Source: an uncultured bacterium | Lineage (GTDB): Bacteria; Planctomycetota; DG-23; CBDVDV01 | Direction: 5' to 3' | Assembly: GCA_965372835.1 (NCBI GenBank) | Contig: CBDVDV010000003.1 | Location: 71-64,070 of the forward strand | Length of the DNA: 64,000 nucleotides | In this document: positions 1-46,467 of the stretch, one piece after another | Layout of the letters: each line of letters starts with the position of its first letter | Position numbering within the stretch: position 1 is the stretch's first letter | Translations under genes and position numbers: made by a program | The notes under the pieces: model-generated | The model's database searches: none | Seen by the model: only the letters and a program-made list of their open reading frames with translations | What the model was told of the DNA's origin: nothing

Positions 1-628
1 TGCCGAAGCCGGTCACCTCGACGATCGGTTCGCCAACGAACCAGCGTAACACATCGAGGGGATGGACCCCACCACCGACCATCGGTATTTCGCGTTCAAG
101 GTACCAGTTCATCCCAAGGTCACGGTTGAACCGGTCGGCAGACGCCTGGTACCTCAAGTTATGGATGTAGTCCCCTTCCAGGTAGAAGAGCTCCCCCAGT
201 TCTCCTCTGTCTATGATCTCCTTGACCTGAGAGAATACGGGGTTGAAACGCAGTATCTGCCCGACCAGAACCTTTTGCTCTGGGAATCTTCGGACCACTG
301 CTATCATGGACTCAAGGTCCTCCAGAGAGTTCCCCATCGGTTTCTCGACAAAGACGTGCTTGCCAGCCTCGATGGCTTTGACGAAAGGCTCGGCGTGCAG
401 ATGGTCGGGGGTGTGAATGGAAATCGCGTCGATATTCTGGCACTCAACGATGCCGTAGTCCTGGAACTGATGGGGTACGTCAAAGCGCCTACCCACCCGT
501 GCGGTTTTCTCTTCCGACAGGTCACAGACGGCGAGTACCTGTGAACGTGGGTTCGCCTTGTGGGCTGCTATGTGGGCTTGCGCATTGCCCCCCAGGCCAA
601 TGAATCCCATCCTGACCACTTCCCTCAT
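1..628 (-). CDS. Gfo/Idh/MocA family NAD(P)-dependent oxidoreductase, N-terminal part (gene runs off the window start)
   Basis: My reverse-complement translation of 1-628 reads MREVVRMGFIGLGGNAQAHIAAHKANPRSQVLAVCDLSEEKTARVGRRF...VFVEKP..., the classic Rossmann GxGxxG N-terminus and EKP motif of Gfo/Idh/MocA enzymes. It is absent from the ORF track because there is no in-window stop, and the + strand ORF 62..544 is its antisense shadow. Confidence 0.7.
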   Translation of the reverse strand, partial: MREVVRMGFIGLGGNAQAHIAAHKANPRSQVLAVCDLSEEKTARVGRRFDVPHQFQDYGIVECQNIDAISIHTPDHLHAEPFVKAIEAGKHVFVEKPMGNSLEDLESMIAVVRRFPEQKVLVGQILRFNPVFSQVKEIIDRGELGELFYLEGDYIHNLRYQASADRFNRDLGMNWYLEREIPMVGGGVHPLDVLRWFVGEPIVEVTGFG

Positions 629-724
629 CGCCCTTTGTCCTCTTTAGAGAAGATATCGTTTAGCCGGCGAATCGGCGAGCTTACCGGCCTCGGTCCCAAG
701 ACAGGCGAGTCGGTGATAGAGGAA

Positions 725-1603
725 TCAACGAGTCTCGCTTCCCTCCACCTTCTCTTGCGAACCCTCCGTCTTGAGGGGGCCGATGCGCTGAGTGCCCACG
801 GCCAGCTCGTCAATCCACAGGGCCTGGGCGTGAGGCAGAAGGCCTGGACCAAAATATGGAGTCAGCAGGAACTGGTTGAACTTCATGTTGGGAAAGTCAA
901 CGGTGCGGAAGACGATATCGGTGTGCTCGACGACGAGTTTCCCGTCGAACCAACCTCGGATCTTACCATCGGGGTTCCACCTGCCCGTTGCCGTGTCCAC
1001 GGTATTCAGTTTGAACATGGCCTCGACGCAGTGCCACTTGCTGTCGTTGAAGAGGACCTGGCTGCTGTCGTAGAGTTTGCCGTTGTAGCCACCCCGCAGG
1101 GGGCCTTGGGTCAGGCCATGGGGCGAGTCCGCGTTTTGCATGTCGGTCGCGCCCAGTCGCAGTTTCCCGTTCACCGGCTCAATGTACAAGGTGAGGTGGC
1201 TGGAGGCCGGACCGTGGAACTTGGTATTCTCCGTAGTCATGAAGTGGGTCAGGTGAGGGTGCCAGTTCCGCCCGCTCCACCCCCAGTTCGGGGAGAATTT
1301 GATGTAGAAACGGAGGTAGACGGTGTCAGTTGGCTCGATCAGGTGCCTGAGACCCGAGGAAGCGACCTGGCCGCCACCCTTCTTCTTCCAGTGGTACTCG
1401 ATGCAGCCGTCACCGGCGTACGCCCCCTTCTTGATGAGGAACTTGTCGCCGTCGTACCAGCCCCGCTTGAGCAGGTTAGCATCGTCGAAACTTTCGCTGA
1501 AGAGGAGGCCGGGAACCTGGTCTTCAGCAGCCTCTACCCTCAAGACAAGCAAGCCGACGATGAGCAGTCCGCCTGCCAGCACTACCAACGAACCTATTCT
1601 CAT
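725..1603 (-). CDS. Secreted paralog family member (divergent; lacks the LPEGPGLAAKYPGD module) - last gene of the tandem array
   Basis: Signal peptide (MRIGSLVVLAGGLLIVGLLVL). Shares core motifs with neighbours (YLRFYIKF, HFMT, KWHCVEAMFKLNT, GWFDGKLV, LWIDELAVG..IGP). Start trimmed to the internal Met that precedes the hydrophobic signal. Confidence 0.65.
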   Translation of the reverse strand: MRIGSLVVLAGGLLIVGLLVLRVEAAEDQVPGLLFSESFDDANLLKRGWYDGDKFLIKKGAYAGDGCIEYHWKKKGGGQVASSGLRHLIEPTDTVYLRFYIKFSPNWGWSGRNWHPHLTHFMTTENTKFHGPASSHLTLYIEPVNGKLRLGATDMQNADSPHGLTQGPLRGGYNGKLYDSSQVLFNDSKWHCVEAMFKLNTVDTATGRWNPDGKIRGWFDGKLVVEHTDIVFRTVDFPNMKFNQFLLTPYFGPGLLPHAQALWIDELAVGTQRIGPLKTEGSQEKVEGSETR

Positions 1604-1666
1604 GGCCCTTCCCTCCTGCCTTGCAGACACGGAACTACTGCCCCGTTCACCTCCCAAAGAACGAAC

Positions 1667-2728
1667 CTACTTAGTCAGGGGCCCGATGTATTCCTTAGCC
1701 ACGACCACGTGGTCGAAGCAGACGCTGTTCTCCTTGGTATTCACCGCTGCGCCGAGCGAGTCCTTTTCGGTTCCGCTGAATGCGCCCTCCGACATGTAGT
1801 AGAGGAACCAGAACTTGTTGATCTGGACGCGCGGGTCGGTCCGCCAACGGATGCCTTCGAAGGGTCGGCTCCGCTGGTCCGTCGGATCGTTGCGGAAGGT
1901 GTCGCGCATCCAGTAGCCCTTCACGGCCCCGGGCATGAAGTTGCCGGCGAGTTCGCCGTCGATCCAGAAGGCCTGGCCGCCGTTAGGCTTGCCCACATCG
2001 TTCAACTTGACCATGAACTCCACGCACACCCACCGGTCACGCGGGACCACGTATGGCTTCACCGGCGTGAAGGAGTTCCCGTAGAATTTGGTTCCCCGCC
2101 CCTCGGGCGTTTCGTAACTGCGCATCTCGGGCCAGTAGGTGTAGAAATGCCAGATGCCGGGCGGGGCGAACCGCGTGCGGGGGTACTTGTTCGTGTCGGC
2201 CGCCGTCGGTTCGATGCCGGTGGTGAAGGAAGTGGTCGGTCGGCTGCCTGCGCCTCCCATGGGGTAGGGGGGTGGGTCGATGGCCCCCTGGAGTTTGATG
2301 AAGTGATGGAGGTAGCCGTGGTCGGCTGAGAACTTGACGTAGAAGCGGGCGAAGAGTTGCTCGTAGCCCGGCTTGAAGACCTTGAAGAGATGTGCGCCCT
2401 CGTTCTGGCCACGGGTGGCCGTCATCTGCAGTGACTTGCCGCCCGGGCTCATATCGGGGATGTCGTCGACGAACGCTAAGCCCTCCGGGTTCTTGGCCTC
2501 GTTCCAGCGCTTGCGCACCGCGTCCAGGCTGTCCTCGTCGAAGTTCTCGACGAAGACTACGATCTCGTCGCCTTCTATGCCCTTGTCGCCGGGGTACTTG
2601 GCAGATAGGCCTGGGCCCTCGGGGAGATCGGCCGCTTTGGCCGCGCTTCCCTCCTGAGCGGAACTTGCGGTCGTAAGGAGTCCTAACAGACACGTACCGG
2701 CGAAGAGTGCTACACACATCAATTTCAC
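1667..2728 (-). CDS. Secreted paralog family member (conserved N-terminal LPEGPGLSAKYPGDKGIEGD module; beta-rich Tyr/His/Arg-rich core, possible polysaccharide-lyase-like fold)
   Basis: Signal peptide ending SSAQEGSA, then LPEGPGLSAKYPGDKGIEGDEIVVFVENF. Core motifs YARFYVKF..HH, FYTYWPEM, RWVCVEFMVKLN, FWIDGEL, YIGP shared with 10 neighbours. Confidence 0.8.
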   Translation of the reverse strand: MKLMCVALFAGTCLLGLLTTASSAQEGSAAKAADLPEGPGLSAKYPGDKGIEGDEIVVFVENFDEDSLDAVRKRWNEAKNPEGLAFVDDIPDMSPGGKSLQMTATRGQNEGAHLFKVFKPGYEQLFARFYVKFSADHGYLHHFIKLQGAIDPPPYPMGGAGSRPTTSFTTGIEPTAADTNKYPRTRFAPPGIWHFYTYWPEMRSYETPEGRGTKFYGNSFTPVKPYVVPRDRWVCVEFMVKLNDVGKPNGGQAFWIDGELAGNFMPGAVKGYWMRDTFRNDPTDQRSRPFEGIRWRTDPRVQINKFWFLYYMSEGAFSGTEKDSLGAAVNTKENSVCFDHVVVAKEYIGPLTK

Positions 2729-2765
2729 GCCCTTTCCTCCTTATGTCGATGTCCCACAAGAGCGA

Positions 2766-3749
2766 TCAGTCTGTCCTTGCCGAACCCTTAGCCGTTGCCG
2801 GCGCCAAGGGCCCGATGTAGTCGGTGGCCACAACGACGTCGTCGAACCACACTCGATTGAACCGCCCGTTGGGGTAGTAGCGTTTGGTCTCGAAGGGTGC
2901 GCCGGCCCCGATTCCGATGTGGTGCTCCAGCCAGAGCTTGTTGATCTTGAGTTCGTCGGTGCTTCGCCAGCGGAAACCCCTGAACCGGCCGGTCAGCTTC
3001 CCGTCAATCCAGAAGGCTTGCTCGCCGTCGGCCTTCTCGGGCGAGGAGTTCGCCTTGATCAGAAACTCGGCGCATATCCAGCGGTCACGGGGGATCAGCA
3101 CCGGTGGCTTGGGAGTGAAACTGTTCCCCCAGTACTTGTTCATCTTGGGGTCGATCTTCATCTCCTGCCAGTAGGTGTAGAAGTTCCACTGACCCGGTGG
3201 CGGCACCTGGGCCTTCCAGTCGCCCTTGGGTTCCAGGCCGGTGGAGAAGCGTTTGTCGCCGGCCGGTCGCGTGCCTGCCTGTGGGTTGGGCCACGGCGCG
3301 CCGGTTCGTTCAGCCTCCAGCCACACGAAGTGATGGATGTAGCCGGCCTCCCGGTGGAACTTGACGTAGAACCGACAGTACATCTGGTCAGCGCCGGGTT
3401 TGAACACCGTGTAGAGGTGCCCGCCTTTGTTCTGTCCCAGGGTCGCCGTCATCTGCAACGAGCGCCGGCCCGCAGTGCCTGCAGGCACGTCCTCGACCAA
3501 CTGCATGACCTTGCCGTCCTTGTTGCTGATGCTGCCCCACCGCTGACCAATGTCCTTGACGGTGCCCGTCTCGAAGTTCTCGACAAAGACCACGGCCTCG
3601 TCGCCTTCTATGCCTTTGTCACCGGGGTACCTGGCGGCTAGGCCCGGGCCCTCAGGCAGATGCCCCGGTGGCATAGTTTCCACCTGCGCGAAGGTGGCCT
3701 GAGCCACGAGGGACACCAGAAACGCCATTCCCAGTGTGCTTACGAGCAT
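2766..3749 (-). CDS. Secreted paralog family member (LPEGPGLAARYPGDKGIEGD module)
   Basis: Paralog motifs (CRFYVKFH..HHF, FYTYWQEM, RWICAEFLIKAN, FWIDGKL, YIGP). Start moved to internal Met (MLVSTLGMAFLVSLVAQA signal peptide), which removes the 70-nt overlap with the upstream gene. Confidence 0.75.
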   Translation of the reverse strand: MLVSTLGMAFLVSLVAQATFAQVETMPPGHLPEGPGLAARYPGDKGIEGDEAVVFVENFETGTVKDIGQRWGSISNKDGKVMQLVEDVPAGTAGRRSLQMTATLGQNKGGHLYTVFKPGADQMYCRFYVKFHREAGYIHHFVWLEAERTGAPWPNPQAGTRPAGDKRFSTGLEPKGDWKAQVPPPGQWNFYTYWQEMKIDPKMNKYWGNSFTPKPPVLIPRDRWICAEFLIKANSSPEKADGEQAFWIDGKLTGRFRGFRWRSTDELKINKLWLEHHIGIGAGAPFETKRYYPNGRFNRVWFDDVVVATDYIGPLAPATAKGSARTD

Positions 3750-3792
3750 CCTTCTCACTTCCTCTCCTCCTACCAGTGTCTCGGCCTCCCGG

Positions 3793-4737
3793 TCACTGTG
3801 CCTTCGCGCCCGGACCCTCCCCGGCAACGGGCACTGTGGGGCCGATGTACTGGGTAGCCACAACGACGTCGTCGTACCAGACCGTGCGACTTTCTTCTCT
3901 CCCGGACCCTCTGTAGTTAGACCACTCCAGATAGAGCGAGAGCTGCACCTGGTTGACCTTCAGGCTCTCCGCGCTGCGCCAGTTTATCTCTCGAAACTCG
4001 CCGCACTTGACGCCGTTCACCCAGCAGTCCAGCTCTCCGTCGGGCTCACCGGGGCTGTTCACTTTCACCCGCCACTCGATGCAGGTCCACTTGCCCAAGC
4101 CGGGCACTTGGGGCGGGTCGGGTTGGAAAAGGTTGCCCCAGTAGTTGCCTCGCCCGTCCGGCTTCATCTTCCACCAGTAGGCGTAGAACATCAGGGCCCC
4201 CGGTGGCTTGTACCTTTCCCGCCTTCCGATGGGCTCAAGGGTGTTCCAGAAGTACGTGTCCCCCTTGGGCGCCCGCCCGGCGTGCCCACCGGGACCGAAG
4301 CTGTCCTCCCTGGCCGAGGCGCAGAAACCGCTCCCACCGTGATGCAGATATCCGAAGTCATTACCGTAGCGGACGTAACACCTCATATAGAGTTCATCCT
4401 GTCCGGGGGTCCGCTTCCAGAACCCCGCGTTGGTGTTTCGCCCCTGCTTGACGACGAATCTAGCAGACTGCTTGCTGCGGGCAATCTCCGGATCGGTCTC
4501 TGCCTCCACGTACCGGCCCCCCGTCACTTGGTCCCACTTGCTGCCGGGCTTGCCGACCTCGAAGTCGTCGTGAAAGAGGACCGTGGGATCCTTCTCGATG
4601 CCAACATCGCCGGGGTATTTGGCCGCCAGCCCCGGACCTTCGGGCAGAGGCACGCTCTTCCCGGCACTTCCCTCCTGGGCGAAGATCACAACAACCAGGA
4701 ACGTGAGCACCAGCAGCAACCCAACCGTCATCTTCAC
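3793..4737 (-). CDS. Secreted paralog family member (LPEGPGLAAKYPGDVGIEKD module)
   Basis: Signal peptide ending IFAQEGSA. Motifs YMRCYVRY..HH, FYAYWWKM, KWTCIEWRVKVN, CWVNGVK, WYDDVVVATQYIGP. Confidence 0.8.
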   Translation of the reverse strand: MKMTVGLLLVLTFLVVVIFAQEGSAGKSVPLPEGPGLAAKYPGDVGIEKDPTVLFHDDFEVGKPGSKWDQVTGGRYVEAETDPEIARSKQSARFVVKQGRNTNAGFWKRTPGQDELYMRCYVRYGNDFGYLHHGGSGFCASAREDSFGPGGHAGRAPKGDTYFWNTLEPIGRRERYKPPGALMFYAYWWKMKPDGRGNYWGNLFQPDPPQVPGLGKWTCIEWRVKVNSPGEPDGELDCWVNGVKCGEFREINWRSAESLKVNQVQLSLYLEWSNYRGSGREESRTVWYDDVVVATQYIGPTVPVAGEGPGAKAQ

Positions 4738-4784
4738 GCCCTCTCCTCCTTTTCGCTCCTGGGGAACTCGGCCGCCTATTGCCT

Positions 4785-5741
4785 TTAGCGTGGCTCTCCG
4801 GTGCTGGCTCGCACCATCGGTCCAATGTATTCGGTGGCGATGACGATGTCATCAAACCACTGGCGACGAGGTGACTGGTCGGCTTGCCAAGACCGCCCAG
4901 CCTTGTTCATATAGTGGTGCAGGTGCACGGAGTTCAGTTTGAGGTCGTTCGTGGTGCGCCAGTTGAAGCCGGTGCCGTGGTAGCGGAGTTCGCCGTCGAC
5001 CCAGTAGGCGCACTCTCCGTCGCGGGCACCGGGAGCCGAGTTCGCCTTGAACATCGTCTCGCAAGAAATCCATCGGTCCTTCTCCACACGAGTTGGCGGG
5101 TCGCTCTGGAATACGTTTCCCCACCGGCCCTTCATCTCGTGCCAGTAGACGTAGAGGCACCAGAAGCCGGGCGTGGATGAACGGTCACCCGGCTCCGGCT
5201 CGAGCATCCCTCCGAAGCGAGCATCTCCGGTGGGCACGATACCGGCTCGGCCGACGGGCCAGGGAAGCGTTTCCTTCCTCGCGCCCAACGAGAGGCCCGT
5301 GTGCGACTCGTTGGGGTAGTCCTCATCGAACTTGATGTAGAAACGACCGTACAGGCGGTCGTAGCCGGGCTTGAGGCGAGCGAACAGATTTCCGCTCTCC
5401 CGGCTGGTTCCTGTGACCAGGATTTCCAGGGCGTGTTTGCCCGAGTGGACATGAGCGGGGTCGGAAACGATGTCAAGCGTTTTGTCATCTCCCTTGGCCC
5501 CGGCGATGCTGGTCCAGCGGGCGCCCGTAGTGGTCTTGTCTGAACGGGCCCGGGCCAGAGCCTCCAGGCTGCCTCCCTCGAAGTTCTCGACGATGATGAC
5601 GGCCGGGTCGCTCTGGAGACCTGCGTCCCCAGGGTACTTAGCGGAAAGTCCGGGGCCTTCGGGAAGCCCGGAGGCAAGGATCCCGTTCGCCAGCACCAGA
5701 GCGAATGCCAGCCCGCCGATGAGTACCGTCCAATACCGCAT
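4785..5741 (-). CDS. Secreted paralog family member (LPEGPGLSAKYPGDAGLQSD module)
   Basis: Signal peptide, then the conserved N-module. Motifs YGRFYIKF, WCLYVYWHEM, RWISCETMFKAN, YWVDGEL, WFDDIVIATEYIGP. Confidence 0.8.
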   Translation of the reverse strand: MRYWTVLIGGLAFALVLANGILASGLPEGPGLSAKYPGDAGLQSDPAVIIVENFEGGSLEALARARSDKTTTGARWTSIAGAKGDDKTLDIVSDPAHVHSGKHALEILVTGTSRESGNLFARLKPGYDRLYGRFYIKFDEDYPNESHTGLSLGARKETLPWPVGRAGIVPTGDARFGGMLEPEPGDRSSTPGFWCLYVYWHEMKGRWGNVFQSDPPTRVEKDRWISCETMFKANSAPGARDGECAYWVDGELRYHGTGFNWRTTNDLKLNSVHLHHYMNKAGRSWQADQSPRRQWFDDIVIATEYIGPMVRASTGEPR

Positions 5742-5769
5742 GTGTTGTCCTTTCCCGAAACGGTTCTGT

Positions 5770-6636
5770 CTACTTCGTCTTCACGGGTGTGCTCGGAGCC
5801 ATGGGGCCGATGTATTCGGTGGCCACCACCAGGTTGTCGTAGAAGCAGCGGTTGAGACCCGTGTCGTTCTTGTGAAGGTAGAGCATGAGGATGACTTTGT
5901 TGATCCGGAGTTCGGCGACGTCCCTCAGGTGCAGGTTCGTCCACTGGCCGACCCGCTTGCCGTCGACCCAGAGGGCCATTTCACCGTCACGCTTCCCGGG
6001 CGTATTGGCGTTCTGCATAACCTCCACACAATACCACCGACCCGGCTGCATTCTCACGTCGGTGCCAAAGTGGTCGCCCCACTGCGACTTCTGCTCCGGG
6101 TGGTAGACGTACAGGGCCATGCCCTGGTGTGGGCGGTCGATGATGGCACAGAACTTGTTTGTGCCGTCGGCCCGCCGACCCGCGTCACCCGGAACCGACA
6201 CGCCCGGCTTCGCCGCCGAGATGCCCCAGCCGTGCATCTTGGTGACCGTCCAGTCATCGGCCAGCTTCCAGTATACGCGGGCGTGAACCTTGTCGTACCC
6301 GGGCTTGAGCCACTTGTAGATGTGTCCGCCGCTGTCGTCCTTGGGCACGGCCCACTCCATCGCGAAGCGGCCTTGGTAAACATTGGCTTGGTCGCTGGTG
6401 AGTGTGACCCGGTCGCGCTTGTGGCCGCCTTCCCAGTTGTCCAGACTCCCGGACTCGAAGTTCTCGACGAAGATGACGGCCTCGTCCTGCTCGATCCCGA
6501 CGTCGCCTGGGTACCGGGAGGCGATGCCTGCTGGCGGCTCCGATTCGGCGAAACCCACCTGGGCCAGGGCCAGCCCGGCAATCAGTGCAACTGAAATGAT
6601 AACGGGGACCACAGTTCTTGCTCCGTTCTTCCTCAT
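5770..6636 (-). CDS. Secreted paralog family member (shortened N-module: AGIASRYPGDVGIEQD)
   Basis: Signal peptide. Motifs VYWKLADDW, RWYCVEVMQNANTPG, LWVDGKRVG, YDNLVVATEYIGP. Confidence 0.8.
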   Translation of the reverse strand: MRKNGARTVVPVIISVALIAGLALAQVGFAESEPPAGIASRYPGDVGIEQDEAVIFVENFESGSLDNWEGGHKRDRVTLTSDQANVYQGRFAMEWAVPKDDSGGHIYKWLKPGYDKVHARVYWKLADDWTVTKMHGWGISAAKPGVSVPGDAGRRADGTNKFCAIIDRPHQGMALYVYHPEQKSQWGDHFGTDVRMQPGRWYCVEVMQNANTPGKRDGEMALWVDGKRVGQWTNLHLRDVAELRINKVILMLYLHKNDTGLNRCFYDNLVVATEYIGPMAPSTPVKTK

Positions 6637-6646
6637 CGGACTGCGA

Positions 6647-7663
6647 TCACGGGCGCTTCACTCCAGCGCCCGCTGTCGGGCGAGCCGCCTGGGGACCAAT
6701 GTATTCGGTGGCCAGGACGACGTCGTCGTACCACATTCGGCTGACCGGTGCCACGCCTTCGCCCTGAGAGACGTACAGGCCCATCGAGTAGCAGTTGATC
6801 TTCACGTCCTCCCGTGTCCGCCAGTTGTAGCCTTCGAAGGGCCCCTTGGGTGGATCGTTGAACCAGCGGTCGCGGAGCCAGTAGCCCTTGGGTACCCCGG
6901 GCCCAAAGTGGGCGACGAGGCTGCCGTCAATCCAGGCGGCCTGCTCACCGTCGTACTTGCCGGGGGTGTTTGCCTTGAGCATGACCTCCATGCCGACCCA
7001 CCGGCCTTTCTCGACAGGCTGAGGTTCAAAGGGGGAGAAGTTGTTGCCCCAGGTGGTCTCACCCACGCCCTCCGGGGTCTCGTGACTGTGCATCTCGGGC
7101 CAGTAGGTGTAGAAGTGCCAGACCCCGGGCATGGGCACCCCCTTCGACCGTACCGGCTCAAAGGTGGTCCAGAAGGCATCGATGGGACGCTTGCCGGCGC
7201 CGCCTCCCTTGGTCCAGCCCCACTTGTCGTTGGTGCGCTGGGCGATGGGGGTGCTGAAGACGTGGCTGGTCTTGCCGATGTCCTCGGCGAACTTGACGTA
7301 CCAGCGGACGAAGACGGTGTCGTGACCGGGCATGAACCAGGTCTTGGCGGTGGCGTCCTTCACCTCCTGGTCACACACGAACTCGCAGGCGTATTTGCCG
7401 CTGTGGACGTTGGTAGGTTCCTTCGCGAAGATGATGTTCTTGCCGCCTCTCACGTCCTCCCAGCGGCTCCGGTCAAGTTCGCCGGCCTCGAAGTTCTCGA
7501 CGAAGATGACGGCCGGGTCCTTCTCGAGGCCGGCGTCCCCAGGATACTTCGCGGCCAACCCGGCGCCTTGGGGGAGTAGGGGAGGGGTGTCTCCCTGAGC
7601 CAACGTCGCCTCAGTGAGCATGAGAAGAGCACCAACCATGAGCACTGGCAGAACGTGATCCAT
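6647..7663 (-). CDS. Secreted paralog family member (LPQGAGLAAKYPGDAGLEKD module)
   Basis: Signal peptide ending ATLAQG. Motifs VRWYVKF, FYTYWPEM, RWVGMEVMLKANTPG, AWIDGSL, WYDDVVLATEYIGP. The otherwise conserved Cys in the RW-C-E motif is replaced by Gly here. Confidence 0.8.
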   Translation of the reverse strand: MDHVLPVLMVGALLMLTEATLAQGDTPPLLPQGAGLAAKYPGDAGLEKDPAVIFVENFEAGELDRSRWEDVRGGKNIIFAKEPTNVHSGKYACEFVCDQEVKDATAKTWFMPGHDTVFVRWYVKFAEDIGKTSHVFSTPIAQRTNDKWGWTKGGGAGKRPIDAFWTTFEPVRSKGVPMPGVWHFYTYWPEMHSHETPEGVGETTWGNNFSPFEPQPVEKGRWVGMEVMLKANTPGKYDGEQAAWIDGSLVAHFGPGVPKGYWLRDRWFNDPPKGPFEGYNWRTREDVKINCYSMGLYVSQGEGVAPVSRMWYDDVVLATEYIGPQAARPTAGAGVKRP

Positions 7664-7698
7664 TGTTCCTGTTCTCCGGCAAGGGTGCTGGGACTGAA

Positions 7699-8799
7699 TC
7701 AGCCCTCTCCTTCATCGATCTTCTGCAAGCGGTCACGGGAAGACCGACCGATCCACGTTGTCCCGAAATGCTGGGCCAGTTTTTCAAAGCGGCTCCTGGC
7801 TTCTTCGACCCGGCCTTCACCGAGCCACTTGTCCGCTTCGTAGAATGCATCAGCCCCGGTCGTGAACACCTCCGCTCCCAAGGCTGCTGCTTCTTCGCCC
7901 GAAGGAACGTAGATGTCTTTCAGCTTCTCGAGAATAGGCGGGTTATCGTCCAGCAGGATGCCGTAAGCCCCCGGGACGCGCTCGCGGAAGAGTCGGGCGC
8001 GGAAATCGGGCGTGACGCCACCGTGGGCGTCGCCGGCGTCGCGACCCGAGGTGGGGTCGATGTCTGCGGTGAGGATGCCTTCCGGGTCGCTTCGACCGTC
8101 GGCAAGCACCTCGGCCTTGGGGTTGATGATGAGGCTGTTGCCGCCTCGGAAAGCCACCACGACGTAGACGTAGTTGTCGGCGGCGCGTGCTCTGAAGCAC
8201 GCTAGGCTGGCCTCCCGACCGGCGGACGACGCTCCCCCCATAGTCAGATGAAAAACGATGTCGGCGCCAGCAAGCGCCAGGGCCCGGGTGGTCTCCGGGA
8301 ACACCATGTCGTAGCAGATGCACATGCCTATGGTGCCGATACCGGGGGCCTGGAAGACCGGGAAGCCCTCGCCCCGGGTACGGGCCTGCTCGTGCAGGGG
8401 AAGTTGAACCTTGCGGTACCGACCGATTTCCTTGCCGTCTTTGCCGATGAGGATGGCGGTGTTGTGCACCTTGTCGTCGGTCGCACAGTCGTTACAGACG
8501 ATGATGTACATCCCACGTGTGTTGGCGATCTCACCGAAGCGGCCCAGCATGGCCTCCTCGGCGGGGAGCAGGAGTTTCTCGACCTCGTTCCAGTGTCCAG
8601 CCTCCCATTCGATGGTCCCGAGCGTGTCCTCAGGGAAGGCGGCGATGTCACAGCCCATCTCGGCGGCCTCTTCGGCCAGGGCTGTCAACTGGTCCAGGTT
8701 TTCGTTGACTTGTTTCAGGGCTTCATCGGCTGTGGGCACTTTGTAGGAGATGGTTCGGCGTTTGGTCTGGACCGCGCCGACCCGCACAGTGTTGGCCAT
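7699..8799 (-). CDS. Carbon-nitrogen hydrolase (nitrilase/amidase superfamily) embedded in the paralog array
   Basis: The N-terminal portion of the frame has no signal peptide. It contains a CN-hydrolase-type catalytic Cys motif (GMCICYD) and an EKC-type fold signature. Co-directional with and tightly spaced between array genes. Confidence 0.7.
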   Translation of the reverse strand: MANTVRVGAVQTKRRTISYKVPTADEALKQVNENLDQLTALAEEAAEMGCDIAAFPEDTLGTIEWEAGHWNEVEKLLLPAEEAMLGRFGEIANTRGMYIIVCNDCATDDKVHNTAILIGKDGKEIGRYRKVQLPLHEQARTRGEGFPVFQAPGIGTIGMCICYDMVFPETTRALALAGADIVFHLTMGGASSAGREASLACFRARAADNYVYVVVAFRGGNSLIINPKAEVLADGRSDPEGILTADIDPTSGRDAGDAHGGVTPDFRARLFRERVPGAYGILLDDNPPILEKLKDIYVPSGEEAAALGAEVFTTGADAFYEADKWLGEGRVEEARSRFEKLAQHFGTTWIGRSSRDRLQKIDEGEG

Positions 8800-8832
8800 T
8801 GTTCTATCCTGTCCTTTCTTACTAGTTCCGTG

Positions 8833-9957
8833 CTATCGACTTGCCGAGCCCTCGTCCGGTTTGGCCAGCAGCAGGGGGCCGATGTACTCGGTGGCCAAAA
8901 CGGTGTTGTCGAACCAGCAGGTGTATTGCTGGGTGTTGATGGGGAAGTCGGGGTGCTCGCCAGCGTACTTTTCGCTGGCCTTGAAGGAGCCCTCGGAGAC
9001 GTAGTTCTCGACCTTGAACTTGTTGATCTGCACGCGCATGTCGGTCCGCCAGCGGAAGCCCTCGAAGGGTCCCTGACGCTTGTCGCCTGGAACGATGCGG
9101 AAGTTCTCCCGCACCCAGTACCCCTCGACCGACCGCGGGCCCCAGTCACCGACGAGTTTCCCGTCGATCCAGAAGCGTTGGGCGCCGTCGGACTTCTCCG
9201 GGTCGGAGTTGAGTTTCACCATCCACTCCAGGCAGATCCACTTATCACGCAGAGCCAGGGTCGGCTCGGCGGGGCTGAAGTTGTTTCCGTAGAAACTCGT
9301 GCCCGTCCCTTCTGGCGGATTGTTCTTGACGACACCCTCGACCGTCTCCCAGGAGTGCATCTCCGGCCAGTAGGTATAGAAGTGCCAAAAGCCCGGCGGG
9401 GGGGACCTCTTGGGGGGCCAGGTGTGAAGCAGGGCCGTCGTGGGCTCCAGGCCGGTGCCGAAGCGCCTCTTCGGCCTGAGCCCCGCCTTGCCGACCGGCC
9501 AGGGCTTGGGGTCGATCTCGCCACCCAAAGAGCAGAAGTGGTGGTCGAAGCCGTAGTCAGGAGCGAACTTGACGTATAGGCGCGCGTACAGTTCGTCGTA
9601 GCCCGGCTTCAGAATCTTGTAGAGGTAGCCGCCTTCGTTCTCTCCACGCTTGGCCGTGACGGCCAGGGAGTGTAGGCCGGCGCTCCCCGGCGCAATCTCC
9701 TCGGAAAGGGAGAGCGCACCGGCCTTGTTCCCTACCGAGGACCAGCGCCCTTTGAGCGACTCGACCCCACCGGCCTCGAAGTTCTCAGCGAAAACGACGG
9801 CCCGGTCTTTCTCGATGCCTTTGTCACCCGGATACCTGGCTGCTAGGCCTGGCCCTCCCGGCAGTGCGGCCTTGGGGGCGCTGCCCTCCTGGGCGAAGGC
9901 GACCGCAACCAGCAGAAGGCAGATACAAAGCGACCCTGTTGACACGTTGCCAATCAC
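8833..9957 (-). CDS. Secreted paralog family member (LPGGPGLAARYPGDKGIEKD module)
   Basis: Signal peptide ending VAFAQEGSA. Motifs YARLYVKF, FYTYWPEM, KWICLEWMVKLN, FWIDGKLVG, YIGP. Confidence 0.8.
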   Translation of the reverse strand: MIGNVSTGSLCICLLLVAVAFAQEGSAPKAALPGGPGLAARYPGDKGIEKDRAVVFAENFEAGGVESLKGRWSSVGNKAGALSLSEEIAPGSAGLHSLAVTAKRGENEGGYLYKILKPGYDELYARLYVKFAPDYGFDHHFCSLGGEIDPKPWPVGKAGLRPKRRFGTGLEPTTALLHTWPPKRSPPPGFWHFYTYWPEMHSWETVEGVVKNNPPEGTGTSFYGNNFSPAEPTLALRDKWICLEWMVKLNSDPEKSDGAQRFWIDGKLVGDWGPRSVEGYWVRENFRIVPGDKRQGPFEGFRWRTDMRVQINKFKVENYVSEGSFKASEKYAGEHPDFPINTQQYTCWFDNTVLATEYIGPLLLAKPDEGSASR

Positions 9958-9975
9958 GCTTTATCTCCTTGTCCG

Positions 9976-10956
9976 TTACGGCTTGTGGCCCGAGCCGCCA
10001 CCGGCGGCGGGCTGTAGGGGGCCGATGTACTCAGTAGCCACGACGAGCGCGTCCAGGAAACTTGACTGGTCCTTGGTCGTTCCGCCGTGGAAGTAAGGCC
10101 CCAGCCACCACTGCCTGACCTTCAACTCCGGATTGTTCCCGTCGCGCAGGATGATGCCATCGACGTCGAAGGTGAGCACCCCGTCGATCCACTGCTTGAC
10201 GGCGCCGTCCGCCTGGCCCACCGTGTTCATCCGCACCATGGTCTCTATGCAGTACCATCTGCCTGGGATGATGGGCGTGCGCTGTCCAGTCACCGTGGGG
10301 AAGCGAAACTCGTTGCCACTGACTCGCGCTCCCTGTGCCTCGAACCCTTTGTAACTCTCGAAGAGCGTCGGGTCTTGTCCCTTCTGAGATATGCAGATTC
10401 CGAAGAAGCCGCGCTTCCACGGGCCGTAGACCTTGGAGGCGCACTCCAGGTAGATGCGCAGTTTGTGGGCCTCGTGATAGGTGTGCTCGGGGCCGCCCGG
10501 CGGCTCGAGGTAGATCATCCCGTCGTGCCCGTTGCCGTCACCAGGGCCGCCCCAGTCCCAGTTCTCCTCCCACTTGCGATAGTAGCGGATGTACAGCGTG
10601 TCGTGGCCCTCGAGTCGAGGAGCGCGCAGCCACGGTCCCATCGAGCCCTTCGGATAGAAGACCTCGAGGCTGTGGGTGCCGTCGGCATGTTCCTCCTCGG
10701 TGACCTTCAGGTTCTTCCCCCAGTCCTTGAGGTCGTAGAAGCCCTGCTCGGTGAGCCTGTCGTCCTCAAAGTCCTCCGCAAGGACGACAGCGTCGTCCTG
10801 CTCAATGCCGACGTCACCGGGGTACCTGGCCGCTAAGCCCGGGCCCTCGGGCAAGTCGGGCGCTCTCGGCGCACTTCCCTCCTGGGCAAAGCCACTGACT
10901 GCATGAATGACACAGCACAGCCCCACCACCAAGCCAACCCGTAGGCTCCCAGTCAC
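9976..10956 (-). CDS. Secreted paralog family member, divergent core (keeps LPEGPGLAARYPGDVGIEQD module)
   Basis: Signal peptide ending SGFAQEGSA and the conserved N-module. The core diverges (YIRYYRKWEENWDWGG, RWYCIETMVRMNT, WIDGVL, VVATEYIGP). Confidence 0.75.
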   Translation of the reverse strand: MTGSLRVGLVVGLCCVIHAVSGFAQEGSAPRAPDLPEGPGLAARYPGDVGIEQDDAVVLAEDFEDDRLTEQGFYDLKDWGKNLKVTEEEHADGTHSLEVFYPKGSMGPWLRAPRLEGHDTLYIRYYRKWEENWDWGGPGDGNGHDGMIYLEPPGGPEHTYHEAHKLRIYLECASKVYGPWKRGFFGICISQKGQDPTLFESYKGFEAQGARVSGNEFRFPTVTGQRTPIIPGRWYCIETMVRMNTVGQADGAVKQWIDGVLTFDVDGIILRDGNNPELKVRQWWLGPYFHGGTTKDQSSFLDALVVATEYIGPLQPAAGGGSGHKP

Positions 10957-11004
10957 TTGCGCGCTCCTTCCGTCTTCTGGCCTCAGTCAAGTCACTCCGT
11001 CCGG

Positions 11005-11898
11005 CTACCGTTCGTCGGCCGGCACGCGGGGTCCGACGTACTCCCTGGCCACCACGACGTCGTCGAACCAGACGCGGTTAGTCTGCTTGTTGTTGTGGAT
11101 GTAGAGGAGGACCCAAAGGCAGTTGATCTTCAGTTTGTCCGTTGTTCGCCAGTGGATGCCTGTGTAGTGACCCTTCAGTTGGCCGTCAACCCAGAAGGCC
11201 TGCTCACCGTCAGCCTGGTCCGGCGTGTTGGCCTTGACCATCATCTCCATACAGTACCAGCGCCCACGTTGGATGAGGACGGGCGGTTCGTTTGGCCGGA
11301 AGGCGTTGCCGTAGTAGGGCCCCGACGGGTCGGGCTTCATGTCCACGAAGTAAGAGTAGAAGCCCATGGCCCCGGGGGCCGGGTTCCGGCCCCAGTTCCG
11401 CCAGGGCTCAAGGCCGGTGGAAAAGAAGTCGGTGCCGTCCGGCTTCTGCCCCGAGCGGCCCAGTTGCCAGCGGTCCTTCAGCCCGGCCAGGTGGACGAAG
11501 TGCATCAGATTCCCCTGGTCGAAGTCGGGGGCGAACCGGCAGTACCAGCGCGCGTACACCTGATCGAAGCCGGGCATAAAGAGTTTGGTCAGGTCGCCCC
11601 CGGTGCCGTCGCCGACCCGCGCCTCCAGTTGGACAGCCCCGCGCCCGCTGTGGACGAGTTCCTTCTTGGTCACCAGGCGCACCTCAGGCGGCGCGTTGGG
11701 GTCGTTGTCATCCCAGCGGCTGAGGTCACCCGACTCGAAGTCTTCCACGAAAATGACCGCGTCGTTTTTCTCGATACCAACGTCGCCAGGGTACTTGGCG
11801 GCCAAGCCTGGGCCCTCGGGCAGTTGCTGGGCCTGGGCGGGACCGGTAAGCAAGGCCAGGACCATTAGGACCAGCCAGGGGAGTATGGTGCGTATCAT
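11005..11898 (-). CDS. Secreted paralog family member (LPEGPGLAAKYPGDVGIEKN module)
   Basis: Start trimmed to internal Met (MIRTILPWLVLMVLALLTGPAQA signal peptide), which removes the overlap with the upstream paralog. Motifs YARWYCRF, FYSYFVDM, RWYCMEMMVKANTP, FWVDGQL, VVVAREYVGP. Confidence 0.75.
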   Translation of the reverse strand: MIRTILPWLVLMVLALLTGPAQAQQLPEGPGLAAKYPGDVGIEKNDAVIFVEDFESGDLSRWDDNDPNAPPEVRLVTKKELVHSGRGAVQLEARVGDGTGGDLTKLFMPGFDQVYARWYCRFAPDFDQGNLMHFVHLAGLKDRWQLGRSGQKPDGTDFFSTGLEPWRNWGRNPAPGAMGFYSYFVDMKPDPSGPYYGNAFRPNEPPVLIQRGRWYCMEMMVKANTPDQADGEQAFWVDGQLKGHYTGIHWRTTDKLKINCLWVLLYIHNNKQTNRVWFDDVVVAREYVGPRVPADER

Positions 11899-11923
11899 GG
11901 TTTCGCTCCTGAGGTGAACCTCC

Positions 11924-12847
11924 TCATTGGGCCTCGCCGGCGGACTCGGCCGGTGCCATGGGGCCGATGTAGGAGCGGGCGACCACGACATCGTCCACCC
12001 ACATCTGCTGGTCCTGCTCCGGAGGCTTGGTCATCCAGAAGCCCATGCTGATGGCGTTACATTTGAGGATGTCCGAGGTCCGCCAAACGCGCCCTTCGAC
12101 GAGAACCTGATGGATGCCGTTGACCCACAGTTGCTCTTCGCCGTCCTCGAGGTAGGTGCCGTCGGGTTTGACGGTGTTGACCTTGCAGCGGTGCTCCACG
12201 CAGTACCAGGTGTCGGGTTTGATGAGGATGGGGTTTTCCGGGTCGCTGGTGTTCCCCCAGTACTTGTTCTGCCAACCCGCTTTCATGGTGGGAAAGTAAC
12301 TGTAGAAGTGGAAGTAGCCGGCTCCGGGATGCCTCTTCCACCTCGTGTAGGCGTCGATCCCGGCGCTGAAGGCGTCGTCGCCTTTGGGCCGACTGCCGGC
12401 GCTCACCCACTTGCGCTCGCCCCGGCTTCGGCGGCCCTGGATGCGCTGGTGGTGGAGGTCGTTCTCCACGACGAAGTTCCTGCTGAACTTGACGTACCAG
12501 CGGACGTATATCTCGTCGTAGCCGGGCAAGAATGCATGGGAGATGCCACCGGCCTGGCTTTCGCCCTTGATGTAGTTGGCGCGGGCCGCATACCTCCCCG
12601 TGTGGACGTTGTGCGGGTCGGAGATGACGATCACAGGATGCTCCTTCTCCCGCCTATTGCCTCCGCTCCATGCACTGATGTCCCCGGATTCGAAGCCGTC
12701 TGCGAAGATGACGGCACCGTGGTCAGTGATACCTTTGTCGCCCGGGTACTTGGCCGAGAGGCCCGGGCCGGGCTTTTCCTGGGCCGCGGCCAGCCCCGCC
12801 AAGACAGTTAGGACAACCACGATGCCACAGACACGGGTACTCGTCAT
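11924..12847 (-). CDS. Secreted paralog family member - first gene of the array (EKPGPGLSAKYPGDKGITDH module)
   Basis: Signal peptide ending LAAAQ. Motifs YVRWYVKF, FHFYSYFPTM, TWYCVEHRCKVN, LWVNGIH, VVVARSYIGP. Divergent intergenic region upstream (12848-13005). Confidence 0.8.
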   Translation of the reverse strand: MTSTRVCGIVVVLTVLAGLAAAQEKPGPGLSAKYPGDKGITDHGAVIFADGFESGDISAWSGGNRREKEHPVIVISDPHNVHTGRYAARANYIKGESQAGGISHAFLPGYDEIYVRWYVKFSRNFVVENDLHHQRIQGRRSRGERKWVSAGSRPKGDDAFSAGIDAYTRWKRHPGAGYFHFYSYFPTMKAGWQNKYWGNTSDPENPILIKPDTWYCVEHRCKVNTVKPDGTYLEDGEEQLWVNGIHQVLVEGRVWRTSDILKCNAISMGFWMTKPPEQDQQMWVDDVVVARSYIGPMAPAESAGEAQ

Positions 12848-13005: not shown

Positions 13006-14280
13006 TTGGCCTTGCCCCGGTGCGAGCGGCGACCCTATGATGGCCTTGGACGTGTTTGCCAAAGTGGTGGTGCTGAGGCCGGTGAAGGAGTAGGTGTGGT
13101 CGCCGAGGCCGCGACGGAGGGGCGGGACCTGAAGCCTTTCTCACTGCTGGTGAAGCCCGTCTCCGCCAACTGCAACCTGCGCTGTAAGTACTGCTTCTAC
13201 CGCCGGGTGGGGCGGATGTACCGGGGTCGTCGGCGCATGTCGTCCAAGGTTCTGGACGCGATGGTCAAGCAACTGGTGGGCCTGGGTTTCTCCCCGGCGG
13301 CTTTCTCCTGGCAGGGGGGAGAGCCCACGCTGGCCGGGCTGGACTTTTACCGCCAGGCGGTGGCGTGTCAGGCGCGGTTCGGCTCTCGCGGCCAGGTGAT
13401 CTCCAACTCGCTTCAGACCAACGGCCTGCTCATCGATGAGGAGTGGGGGGAGTTCCTGGCTGAGTACCGCTTCCTGGTCGGCCTCAGTCTCGATGGCCCC
13501 CAGGGGCTCAATGATGCCTACCGGAAGCGAGGAGACGGTCGAGGGAGCTTCAGCGATGCGCTCCGGGCCGTGGCAGTGCTGCGGCGACATAAAGTGGAGT
13601 TCAACATCCTCTCGGTGCTCACACCCCTGACAGTGGACCGGGCCAGGGAACTCTACCACTTCTTCGTGGAGGAAGGGCTGAACTACCTGCAGTTCATTCC
13701 TTGCGTGGAGCGGGTGCCGCAGGGCGGCACCGCTCCCTTCACCGTGGACGCAGACGGATACGGGCGTTTTCTCTGTGACCTCTTCGACGTGTGGCTTGCC
13801 GACGGCCGGCGGGCCTCCATCAGGCTGTTCGATGCCATCCTGGAAAGGCTGGTCACGGGTGAGTCGCCGCTGTGCGTCCTGGGCCGCCGATGCGACCACT
13901 ACCTGGTGGTGGAGCATTCCGGGGACGTCTACCCGTGCGATTTCTTCGTCGTCCGCCGATGGCATCTGGGGAACCTGCTCAAGACCCCTCTGGCCAGGCT
14001 CTTCGGCGGAGAAAAGCACGAGCAGTTCACTTCGATGAAGACCCAGTTGGCCCCGGGGTGCCGGGACTGCGAGTGGGTGGAGATGTGCTGGGGTGGGTGC
14101 CCGAAGGACCGCCAGTTCGTCGGGGACCCCCGACGCGTGCCTACCTACTTGTGCCCCGCATACCAGATGCTCTTCGCCCACGCTGGCGAAACGTTCCGGC
14201 GACTGGCCACAGAGCTGGCCGGTCGAGTGGGCGGTCCGCCAGCCAAAGGTGTGAAAGAAACGTCCTCACCTGCTCAGTAG
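13006..14280 (+). CDS. Radical SAM/SPASM-domain enzyme, anaerobic sulfatase-maturating enzyme (anSME)-like
   Basis: FSLLVKPVSANCNLRCKYCFY radical-SAM CxxxCxxC cluster near the N-terminus. C-terminal Cys-rich SPASM region (CDFF..., CRDCEWVEMCWGGCPKDR). The true start may be the in-frame GTG near 13096. Confidence 0.7.
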   Translation: MALPRCERRPYDGLGRVCQSGGAEAGEGVGVVAEAATEGRDLKPFSLLVKPVSANCNLRCKYCFYRRVGRMYRGRRRMSSKVLDAMVKQLVGLGFSPAAFSWQGGEPTLAGLDFYRQAVACQARFGSRGQVISNSLQTNGLLIDEEWGEFLAEYRFLVGLSLDGPQGLNDAYRKRGDGRGSFSDALRAVAVLRRHKVEFNILSVLTPLTVDRARELYHFFVEEGLNYLQFIPCVERVPQGGTAPFTVDADGYGRFLCDLFDVWLADGRRASIRLFDAILERLVTGESPLCVLGRRCDHYLVVEHSGDVYPCDFFVVRRWHLGNLLKTPLARLFGGEKHEQFTSMKTQLAPGCRDCEWVEMCWGGCPKDRQFVGDPRRVPTYLCPAYQMLFAHAGETFRRLATELAGRVGGPPAKGVKETSSPAQ

Positions 14281-16931: not shown

Positions 16932-16960
16932 CCCTCGTCCAACCCTCAAGAGAAGGCAAC

Positions 16961-36571: not shown

Positions 36572-36584
36572 AGCGTCGGCCTCC

Positions 36585-37562: not shown

Positions 37563-37567
37563 CCTCG

Positions 37568-38872: not shown

Positions 38873-38900
38873 CCCCCCCGCTCCTGTCTTGTGGGGACCT

Positions 38901-46321: not shown

Positions 46322-46467
46322 CCACCCCGGGCGGACACGCATGTCCGCTTGCCCCCCGTACTTGTAGGCGCCTTGACATCGCCGCCCGCGTGGGGCTATG
46401 GTTTACGTTGGTCGGGCGTTGGCGCCCCGAGGCTGCAGGCCGATGATTGGGAAAGGAGCAGGCGGCG

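Follow-up and report, generated by a model that had tools for sequence, protein, structure and literature searches.

Eleven secreted paralogs related to PL14 and PL36 polysaccharide lyases, and a carbon–nitrogen hydrolase, in a tandem array of an uncultured planctomycete

Introduction

What do eleven secreted versions of one protein do for a bacterium that encodes them side by side? The question is raised by a stretch of 64,000 nucleotides (64 kb; the window in what follows) from contig CBDVDV010000003.1 of an uncultured member of the Planctomycetota. On the minus strand of this window, positions 725–12847 hold 11 homologous genes and, among them, one unrelated gene for a carbon–nitrogen hydrolase (CN-hydrolase), as read from a six-frame list of open reading frames (ORFs) and a MAFFT alignment. 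The genes are named here m01 to m12, from left to right in the window. Among the main degraders of complex polysaccharides in the sea and in soil are the Planctomycetota and Verrucomicrobiota, and a large share of the enzymes that they encode still lacks an annotation. An initial annotation of the locus proposed either a polysaccharide-utilisation system of planctomycete style or a secreted effector family, in both cases built on proteins that it could match to no known family.

The first of these proposals is still the most reasonable reading. On balance, we lean towards a polysaccharide-degradation operon of planctomycete type, without SusC/SusD, in which the paralogs are secreted glycan-cleaving enzymes and probably lyases that work with a His and a Tyr. 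The statement about family membership, by contrast, has to be given up, as profile and alignment evidence places the paralogs in the superfamily of polysaccharide lyase (PL) families 14 and 36.

Fold and family of the paralogs

In Pfam, the paralogs weakly match Polysacc_lyase_14 (PF21294) and Polysacc_lyase (PF14099). For PF21294, whose cut-off is 27 bits, m10 (30.8 bits) and m04 (27.6 bits) pass; m01, m02, m03, m05, m06 and m11 stay under the cut-off at 12.9–24.9 bits, and m07, m09 and m12 give no match. NCBIfam has no family for any of these proteins. When a profile of the paralogs is compared with the sequences in the PDB, the matches are also weak, the best being the PL36 alginate lyase Aly36B (E 5e-5), followed by the PL14 enzyme AkAly30, X122B, Cip1, vAL-1 and the PL20 glucuronan lyase.

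Structure prediction gives a similar ranking. The AF2 (AlphaFold2) model of m11 (predicted local distance difference test, pLDDT, 91.8) has as its top structural neighbours PL36 Aly36B (score 21.7), PL14 vAL-1 (20.7), PL20 (18.6), X122A (18.5) and Cip1 (18.0). Next come members of glycoside hydrolase (GH) families, namely GH131 (16.4 and 15.8) and GH16 (about 13–15), with PL13 and PL7 (13–14) in the same lower range. The protein is, in effect, a beta-jelly-roll closest to the solved PL14 and PL36 structures. The model of the outlier m01 is weaker (pLDDT 75.8) and yields the same six top matches; the fold is therefore common to the whole array. This bears out the jelly-roll polysaccharide-lyase-type fold that had been suspected in the initial annotation.

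Sequence comparison ties the paralogs more firmly to the same proteins. An hhalign comparison with PL36 fragments reaches a probability of 97.4% (E 1.2e-11, 174 columns). In addition, the family profile scores proteins that Pfam itself calls PF21294 at 1e-43 to 1e-48 (L008, L015, L019, L020, L030, L035, L048 and L061); these have PF21294 E values of their own of 1e-15 to 1e-20 and carry N-terminal Disaggregatase-repeat/CBM96 modules. An N-terminal YPxDxGI...FE motif and a C-terminal DNVVVAxEYIGP motif are common to these cousins and the window paralogs. Given the profile, hhalign and motif ties, the 11 paralogs form a divergent clade of the PL14/PL36 superfamily.

The closest Pfam-recognised relatives of this clade are bacterial PF21294 proteins, for instance those of Parahaliea (L015) and Desulfobacteraceae (L008), which differ from the window proteins in being multi-domain rather than single-domain. 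With PL14 proper (Chlorella-virus vAL-1, 3a0n; Aplysia AkAly30, 5gmt; PF21294), the clade shares homology in the C-terminal half, the Y-x-Y on a cleft strand (5gmt alignment), and the KxNT(P/G)G...DG...W.DG and C-terminal YDN/DDV strand motifs. In contrast to PL14, it has an extra conserved N-terminal segment, YPGDxGIExDxxVxFxxxFE, and most of its members fall under the Pfam threshold. Likeness to the PL20 glucuronan lyase (2zzj), Cip1 (3zyp) and X122 (8q28/8q2a) takes the form of weak profile matches in the N-terminal half (E 0.006–0.015).

Other jelly-roll families can be set apart. The PL7 motifs RxExR, QIH and YFKAGxYxQ and the GH16 motif ExDxxE are absent from the paralogs, as had already been pointed out for this locus, and no GH motif is present. 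A Thermogutta xanthan study points to another jelly-roll family, DUF1080 (PMC5673643). Membership in this family (DUF1080/3-keto-disaccharide hydrolase) was considered and rejected: no window paralog matches PF06439 at E<=1.

Conserved residues of the cleft

Residue numbers in this text are those of m11. The alignment consensus of the paralogs contains the motifs YxRxYVKF, HxF, FYxYWxEMK, WGNxF, RWxCxExMxKxNTPG, DGExAxWxDGxL and WxDDVVVATEYIGP. The core motifs listed in the initial annotation are therein, except that two members are atypical: m01 has no N-terminal YPGDxGIE motif, and neither m01 nor m10 has the Tyr-x-Tyr pair that is found in the other nine of the 11 paralogs.

Which of these residues correspond to known catalytic ones? 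In vAL-1, the catalytic residues are K197, S219, R221, Y233 and Y235. As for Aly36B (6kcv/6kcw), the best solved-structure match by sequence, its double mutant K143A/Y185A (6kcv) reads PAIY where the wild type reads PYIY. Consequently, Y185 falls on the first Tyr of the FYTYW motif of the family, that is, on Y181 of the clade. In Aly36B, Lys143 is both the base and the acid (PDB title; PMC8618178). PL36 homologs have a GGK lysine 42 residues upstream of the Tyr equivalent to Y185, a spacing equal to that between K143 and Y185, and we infer from their sequences that this lysine is K143 of Aly36B; the position was located through the spacing in homolog P0278 and not on the sequence of Aly36B itself, as a search with an Aly36B fragment returned partial PL36 proteins only.

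The full lyase set of GGK, W-S-A-R and Y-x-Y is present in the canonical PF21294 cousins. In a MAFFT alignment bridged by these cousins, the column of the GGK Lys is occupied in the clade by a near-invariant His (His133), and the column of the SAR Arg by G162, with a conserved glutamate, E164, two residues on. Across the clade, the Arg column holds G, N, A, S or T, followed two residues later by Glu or Asp. Thus, with respect to PL14, the clade has exchanged the GGK Lys for His, and the Ser-x-Arg Arg for Gly or another small residue plus Glu; with respect to Aly36B, it has a His at the Lys143 position or at its i+2 neighbour. In PL20, Cip1 and X122, the strand that corresponds to that of His133 does carry a conserved His. 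Cip1 and X122 also have a conserved cleft Arg (R100 and R118, respectively; PMC10916295), whereas on the strand of this Arg the clade has Gly/Glu and no Arg, and only the N-terminal part can be aligned with these proteins by sequence.

The His...Glu/Asp signature, defined by His133 and Glu/Asp164, occurs in 306 of 393 related domains gathered from database matches and fetched loci. Within this class, conservation is high at R117 (100%), Y119 (92%), Y181 (98%), Y183 (99%), E218 (99%), N224 (about 100%), R251 (99%) and D279 (98%). R117, Y119, E218, N224, R251 and D279 are common to the clade and to its Lys-type cousins, but not to PL36 proper.

A His base with a Tyr acid is usual in other jelly-roll lyase families, such as PL7, PL13 and PL18 (PMC8618178), to none of which the clade belongs. 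Since the pair is usual there, a lyase mechanism is the most economical reading of the residues. Nevertheless, the loss of the carboxylate-binding Arg together with the gain of a cleft Glu leaves room for an altered substrate or chemistry, and because the paralogs fail on both the Lys and the Ser-x-Arg, they are not to be filed as ordinary members of PL14 or PL36.

Organization of the array

All genes of the array lie on the minus strand, so that m12 (11924–12847) is the first. It encodes a secreted jelly-roll paralog of 307 aa with a signal peptide, a match to the family hidden Markov model (HMM) at E 1.1e-114 and the H-type signature RY.H..D.YYENRD. It is followed by m11 (11005–11898), a secreted jelly-roll paralog of 297 aa, and by m10 (9976–10956), a divergent secreted paralog of 326 aa (family HMM E 7.6e-96) whose nearest paralog is merely 27% identical. 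Next come m09 (8833–9957), a secreted paralog of 374 aa that is 52% identical to m02, and m08 (7699–8799), the CN-hydrolase, with 366 aa and membership in the amidase/nitrilase superfamily. Beyond m08, the run of secreted paralogs resumes with m07 (6647–7663; 338 aa); m06 (5770–6636), which at 288 aa is the shortest of the array and has its His one column off in the alignment; m05 (4785–5741; 318 aa); m04 (3793–4737; 314 aa); m03 (2766–3749; 327 aa from the ATG at 3749); m02 (1667–2728; 353 aa, with a loop insertion); and m01 (725–1603; 292 aa from the ATG at 1603), the most divergent of all. An insertion of about 26 aa ahead of the WRT motif is found in m09, m02 and m07.

The longest ORFs of m01, m03 and m11 begin farther upstream, at 1657, 3863 and 11991, respectively. 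The internal ATGs are the likelier starts, because they give a normal signal peptide and the preceding gene is then no longer overlapped. If they are used, the intergenic gaps are 10–63 nt (9 nt for m01 with the start of the ORF list), the paralogs are 288–374 aa long, and their pairwise identity is 22–52%. The layout of 11 minus-strand paralogs plus one CN-hydrolase had been recognised in the initial annotation, with slightly different figures for the gaps (10–50 nt) and the lengths (290–375 aa).

All 11 homologous paralogs have signal peptides, as had been stated: a hydrophobic N-terminal h-region (mean Kyte–Doolittle value 2.2–3.5 over 12 residues) is followed by an AxA-type site, mostly A-Q. 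In m08, the corresponding value is 0.40, and there is no signal peptide. An HMM built from the 11 paralogs matches exactly those 11 proteins in the window. At the DNA level, the array has a periodicity of about 1 kb that is due to coding motifs 60–82% identical; these repeats consist of conserved coding motifs only and give no sign of recent gene conversion. Scans for promoters and terminators stayed at chance level and are uninformative about the boundaries of the operon.

The CN-hydrolase and its link to the jelly-roll

The m08 protein matches PF00795 with 126.4 bits (cut-off 23.2; E 1.6e-36), and its Glu/Lys/Cys triad corresponds, in an alignment, to the PE, YRK and ICxD motifs of the Pyrococcus abyssi nitrilase 3ivz. 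It ends in a helical C-terminal tail of about 110 aa. Among solved structures, the nearest to it are archaeal nitrilase-like proteins (E 1e-18), and it reaches no NCBIfam equivalog cut-off. The subfamily to which it belongs is 55–91% identical in more than 120 clusters, including Poribacteria, and is thereby far more conserved than the jelly-rolls.

Is the presence of this gene among the paralogs incidental, as its description as a twelfth gene of the array might suggest? Several observations indicate otherwise. In a Pirellulales (L017) and a Limisphaerales (L014) locus, stop-free frames encode, in this order, a signal peptide, a CN-hydrolase, a helical linker and a jelly-roll, which begins right at its YPGD motif and itself lacks a signal peptide. 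The same make-up of CN_hydrolase, TPR and jelly-roll domains is found in P0163 (723 aa), a database protein independent of these loci. In a metagenome-assembled genome (MAG) close to the organism of the window (L076), the ortholog of m11 and the CN-hydrolase share one stop-free frame, with the jelly-roll first. Finally, when contexts were sampled through the CN-hydrolase, four of seven distinct ones had a member of the jelly-roll family within 10 kb (L081/82; L086; L087, with a distant member; L089, with three members), while three had none within this distance (Poribacteria L083–L085 with a similar JGI contig, L090 and L091). Judged by these gene contexts, the CN-hydrolase is a conserved partner of the jelly-roll family, recurrent and sometimes, in two phyla, fused to it.

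Some of these loci have further genes worth recording. In Poribacteria L083–L085 and the JGI contig, the neighbours of the CN-hydrolase are a DUF6785/DUF6784 membrane protein, a TonB-dependent receptor, an isochorismatase-like protein and a Gfo/Idh/MocA protein. The fusion gene of L014 is flanked (25–1002, plus strand; 3634–8612, plus strand) by genes for a NodU/CmcH-type carbamoyltransferase, a 3-keto-disaccharide-hydrolase/BSP protein, a PQQ-propeller, an AP_endonuc_2 protein and a DeoC aldolase; of these, the carbamoyltransferase could be relevant to what the amidase acts on.

The neighbourhoods sampled through the CN-hydrolase are carbohydrate-catabolic, with Gfo/Idh/MocA, AP_endonuc_2, MR_MLE, Pel9A-like beta-helix proteins, GH42, GH20, TonB receptors and esterases. 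The jelly-rolls have a comparable setting: clustering of neighbours over 89 loci yielded no universally conserved one, the commonest being Gfo/Idh/MocA (about 10 loci besides the window), and sulfatases, AP_endonuc_2, MR_MLE, the Pel9A-like beta-helix protein, GH42 and a GDSL esterase are found as well.

Other fusion partners of His-type members are a CE4 polysaccharide deacetylase (P0150), a Sde182-like protein with PKD (P0169) and a BNR sialidase-like protein with Laminin_G_3 (P0206), and a GDSL acyl-hydrolase gene follows the array of L044. As the partners in the CN-hydrolase and CE4 fusions cleave amide or N-acyl bonds, these fusions and the acyl-hydrolase of L044 suggest that the substrates are acylated or amidated glycans. 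Bifunctional proteins that combine a deacetylase with a glycan-cleaving enzyme are known from exopolysaccharide systems of the PgaB/PelA type. The fusions of the clade are similar in that an N-acyl- or amide-cleaving domain (CE4 or CN-hydrolase) is joined to a glycan-cleft domain; however, the folds are different, no homology is claimed, and the window genes are separate.

Distribution and age of the copies

The paralogs are not peculiar to this genome. The family profile matches 9607 clusters (50% identity) at E<=1e-3, a count that takes in the canonical PF21294 proteins, and 790 clusters at E<=1e-30. Genome matches come from many phyla: Planctomycetota, Verrucomicrobiota, Armatimonadota (including Fervidibacter), Bacteroidota (Mariniphaga), Desulfobacterota, Proteobacteria and candidate phyla. 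In the sources seen, the homologs are named 'hypothetical protein' only, and searches of the literature library used here returned no description of the clade or of its pairing with the CN-hydrolase. A genome survey from 2016 counts 'PL14' genes in planctomycetes by HMM annotation, without characterisation (PMC4807772).

Most loci have a single copy of the family. Nevertheless, tandem arrays do occur in other genomes, which had been raised as a question for this locus: a Pirellulales MAG (L044) has eight family ORFs, one of them with two family domains; Mariniphaga L003 and L004 have 4–6 copies; L067 has four; and L005, L069, L070 and L089 have 3–4. The window array is the largest in the sample examined, but its architecture is not unique. 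In addition, three giant predicted proteins of 2093–4234 aa (P0146, P0269 and P0172) contain 7–15 stretches that match the family profile; each is either a genuine multi-domain protein or the result of gene calls that fused the members of an array.

In L044 and Mariniphaga, most copies are 55–85% identical to one another, which indicates recent local duplication there; arrays have arisen independently in other genomes. A recent local amplification was also considered for the window and rejected, as the orthologs are closer than the paralogs. Each window copy is 26–52% identical to its best paralog and has an external ortholog at 49–95%, above its best paralog. For instance, m06 is 95% identical to P0007, and m12 is 92% identical to its ortholog in L081, where this has a C-terminal extension of about 210 aa. 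The ortholog of m07 directly follows the CN-hydrolase both in L081/L082 (94% identity) and in L067 (75%), and m05 has an ortholog in L067 (80%) in the same gene order. In L081, the closest relative found (CN-hydrolase 91% identical), the order is m12, m11, a 658-aa protein, CN-hydrolase and m07; in L067, it is CN-hydrolase, m07, m06 and m05. The 658-aa protein of L081 (2641–4617, plus strand) stands in place of m09 and m10; it is cytoplasmic, with no Pfam match and no homolog in the window.

As the orthologs are closer than the paralogs and gene order is conserved, the window array is old and has been maintained, which argues for divided functions among its members. Even the most divergent member has counterparts: m01-type orthologs, 59–64% identical, head the Mariniphaga arrays (L003, 1917–2741; L004, 9890–10735). 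Their presence in Bacteroidota points to transfer across phyla and suggests that the m01 type, with no Y-x-Y, has a conserved role beside typical copies.

Other genes in the window

At the left edge of the window, a gene on the same strand as the array encodes a Gfo/Idh/MocA-type NAD(P) oxidoreductase without a signal peptide. Only its 5′ part is included (1–628, minus strand), as the gene leaves the window here. Its weak NCBIfam matches are to inositol 2-dehydrogenase, UDP-GlcNAc 3-dehydrogenase and glycoside 3-dehydrogenase. Starting at 628 on the same strand, it extends the co-directional run to at least 13 genes and is probably the last visible gene of the operon.

On the other side, and divergent from the array, lies a gene for an anaerobic sulfatase-maturating radical-SAM enzyme (13006–14280, plus strand; Radical_SAM and SPASM domains; TIGR03942, 385.5 bits against a cut-off of 349.45). 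Its position beside the array is a hint of sulfated-glycan metabolism; of the window ORFs scanned, none was a sulfatase gene. A SusC/SusD pair, by which Bacteroidota-type polysaccharide utilisation loci would differ from this one, was found neither among the ORFs of the first 21.5 kb (1–21.5 kb), scanned against Pfam, nor in the sampled remainder of the window.

Farther to the right are genes for an Acetyltransf_9 (Eis-like GNAT) protein (14274–15515, minus strand), a TldD/PmbA metallopeptidase pair (15582–17054 and 16961–18376, minus strand), a protein of 657 aa that combines a Wzy_C (O-antigen-ligase-like) domain with TPR repeats at its C-terminus (19488–21461, plus strand), a LarC-type nickel-insertion protein (23503–24720, plus strand), an MR_MLE enolase-superfamily enzyme (28800–30002, minus strand) and a DUF362 protein with 4Fe-4S (31759–32856, minus strand). 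The CN-hydrolase/jelly-roll cluster of L086 likewise holds an Acetyltransf_9 gene, and MR_MLE, DUF362 and Lar_N genes are also near the CN-hydrolase in L087, L089 and L090. A further group (34859–40268 and 42002–43306, minus strand; 46447–48327, plus strand) comprises a GH3-family protein (acyl-adenylating, auxin-type), two beta-ketoacyl synthases, a B12-binding radical-SAM enzyme and a RACo corrinoid-activation protein; these genes may make up a lipid or natural-product cluster that has no connection with the array. A tRNA-Gly(GCC) gene (51197–51272, plus strand) is found just upstream of a trigger-factor gene (51305–52723, plus strand).

Proposed function and its alternatives

As a polysaccharide-degrading enzyme, each paralog would bind a glycan chain in its concave cleft and cleave it, the substrate being a complex acylated or amidated acidic polysaccharide in the extracellular space or the periplasm. 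The chemistry would most likely be beta-elimination at a uronic-acid residue, with His133 as the base, Tyr181 or Tyr183 as the acid, and the carboxylate neutralised by Arg117, by a Ca2+ ion held by Glu164/Glu218, or by both. The diverged copies, with their differing loops and the 26-aa insertion in three of them, would have distinct specificities for linkages or decorations of one complex polymer. The CN-hydrolase, presumably cytoplasmic in the window locus and secreted and fused elsewhere, would hydrolyse a C–N (amide) bond, either in the substrate itself or in a product, such as the bond of an N-acyl, amide or carbamoyl decoration. Finally, the Gfo/Idh/MocA oxidoreductase would process the released sugars in the cytoplasm.

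Several points weigh against this reading. The catalytic Lys and the Ser-x-Arg arginine, which are the residues best tied to PL14/PL36 catalysis, are not conserved in the clade, and the replacement of the Lys by His133 depends on the aligner: hhalign puts the Lys on the variable residue 131, with His133 at i+2 on the same strand and the same face, so that the two aligners disagree by two residues. The cleft-facing residues and their geometry are derived from strand register and are to be taken as predicted, and a conserved Glu in the cleft would be unusual facing an anionic substrate unless a metal bridges the two. Within the array, m01 and m10 may be non-catalytic, to judge from their missing Y-x-Y. 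For no His-type member of the clade is an activity known or a structure solved (the best PDB sequence match being at E 5e-5). As for the partners, Poribacteria have the same CN-hydrolase with no family member within 10 kb, and since m08 and the window oxidoreductase have no signal peptide while the jelly-rolls are secreted, these proteins do not act on the same extracellular polymer.

A bolder version is possible, if doubtful: the His/Gly/Glu clade would be a new family at the level of CAZy, with a new activity mechanistically coupled to amide hydrolysis. This could take two forms, each as tentative as the whole. In one, the proteins would cleave glycans with amide- or N-acyl-bearing uronic acids or amino sugars, with the CN-hydrolase or CE4 preparing the substrate or finishing the product; for instance, the CN-hydrolase might hydrolyse an alpha-keto-amide released by the elimination. 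In the other, the elimination would take place on non-carboxylate (3-keto or amino) sugars.

Among the alternatives, the same scaffold might carry out another chemistry, as the clade has neither the carboxylate-binding Arg nor the Lys base any more and holds two near-invariant Glu. It might work either as a glycoside hydrolase through Glu164/Glu218 or as an eliminase or hydrolase whose substrates have no carboxylate, for instance de-N-acylated amino sugars or 3-keto-glycosides, perhaps in joint action with amide- or ester-removing enzymes and Gfo/Idh/MocA dehydrogenases. The fusions to CE4 deacetylase and CN-hydrolase, both of which cleave N-acyl or amide bonds, the recurrence of Gfo/Idh/MocA, AP_endonuc_2 and 3keto-disac_hyd as neighbours, and the rank of GH131 and GH16 as next-best structural neighbours would all fit. 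Nevertheless, we regard this as unlikely: E218, R117 and R251 are kept in the Lys-type cousins with the full lyase set and so are no invention of this clade, His and Tyr are the standard lyase pair of other jelly-roll PL families (PMC8618178), the Gfo enzyme of the window is cytoplasmic whereas the jelly-rolls are secreted, and a GH motif is absent. Alternatively, catalysis may have been lost altogether and the lyase fold kept for binding glycans, in the manner of a lectin or carbohydrate-binding module or for substrate capture. This may hold for Cip1 and X122, which have a similar fold and no demonstrated activity, being inactive in published screens (PMC10916295), a fact that also counts against the lyase proposal. 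Missing Lys and Arg, the lack of even a Y-x-Y in m01 and m10, and jelly-rolls appended to CN-hydrolase, CE4 and BNR like a binding module are in line with this idea. Yet about ten polar residues are 92–100% conserved over the 306 sequences from many phyla, far above what is usual in binding modules; moreover, the proteins are mostly stand-alone single domains, and 11 paralogs kept in one operon suit enzymes of split specificity better than lectins. A purely binding role is, then, quite improbable.

The remaining alternatives concern what the proteins are for. They might remodel or help export the extracellular polysaccharide of the cell itself, as AlgL or PelA do, rather than serve nutrition. 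Lys-type cousins in Proteobacteria do lie near polysaccharide deacetylases, a CE4–jelly-roll fusion exists, and the Wzy_C/O-antigen-ligase-like gene of the window is 7 kb away; but no glycosyltransferase, Wzx/Wzy polymerase or export genes are found in or beside the operon, 11 diversified secreted copies seem excessive for trimming one self-made polymer, and the neighbours in other loci are catabolic (sulfatases, GH42, MR_MLE, Gfo), all of which makes such a role very unlikely. Least probable, to the point of being barely credible, is the undescribed secreted effector or toxin family of the initial annotation. Nothing was found that supports it: the matches cited for it rank well under the PL14/36/20 group, there are no immunity, secretion-system or toxin-domain genes nearby, and the context is one of carbohydrate metabolism throughout.

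Significance

The array belongs to a large and unnamed clade of the PL14/PL36 fold that crosses phyla, forms part of a set of 790 or more clusters (50% identity) matching the profile at E<=1e-30, and is distinguished by altered near-invariant cleft residues, by repeated amplification in tandem and by an amidase partner that is conserved and in some cases fused. If its members are active lyases, they would constitute a new lyase clade, probably with new substrate specificities; if the chemistry has changed, they would clearly exemplify the repurposing of a lyase scaffold. Should the amide-coupled or the non-carboxylate version of the proposal be true, the recurrent arrays would mark an unrecognised degradation pathway for decorated microbial or algal polysaccharides. 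Whichever applies, the residue signature offers direct targets for mutagenesis, and the operon offers eleven natural variants to screen.

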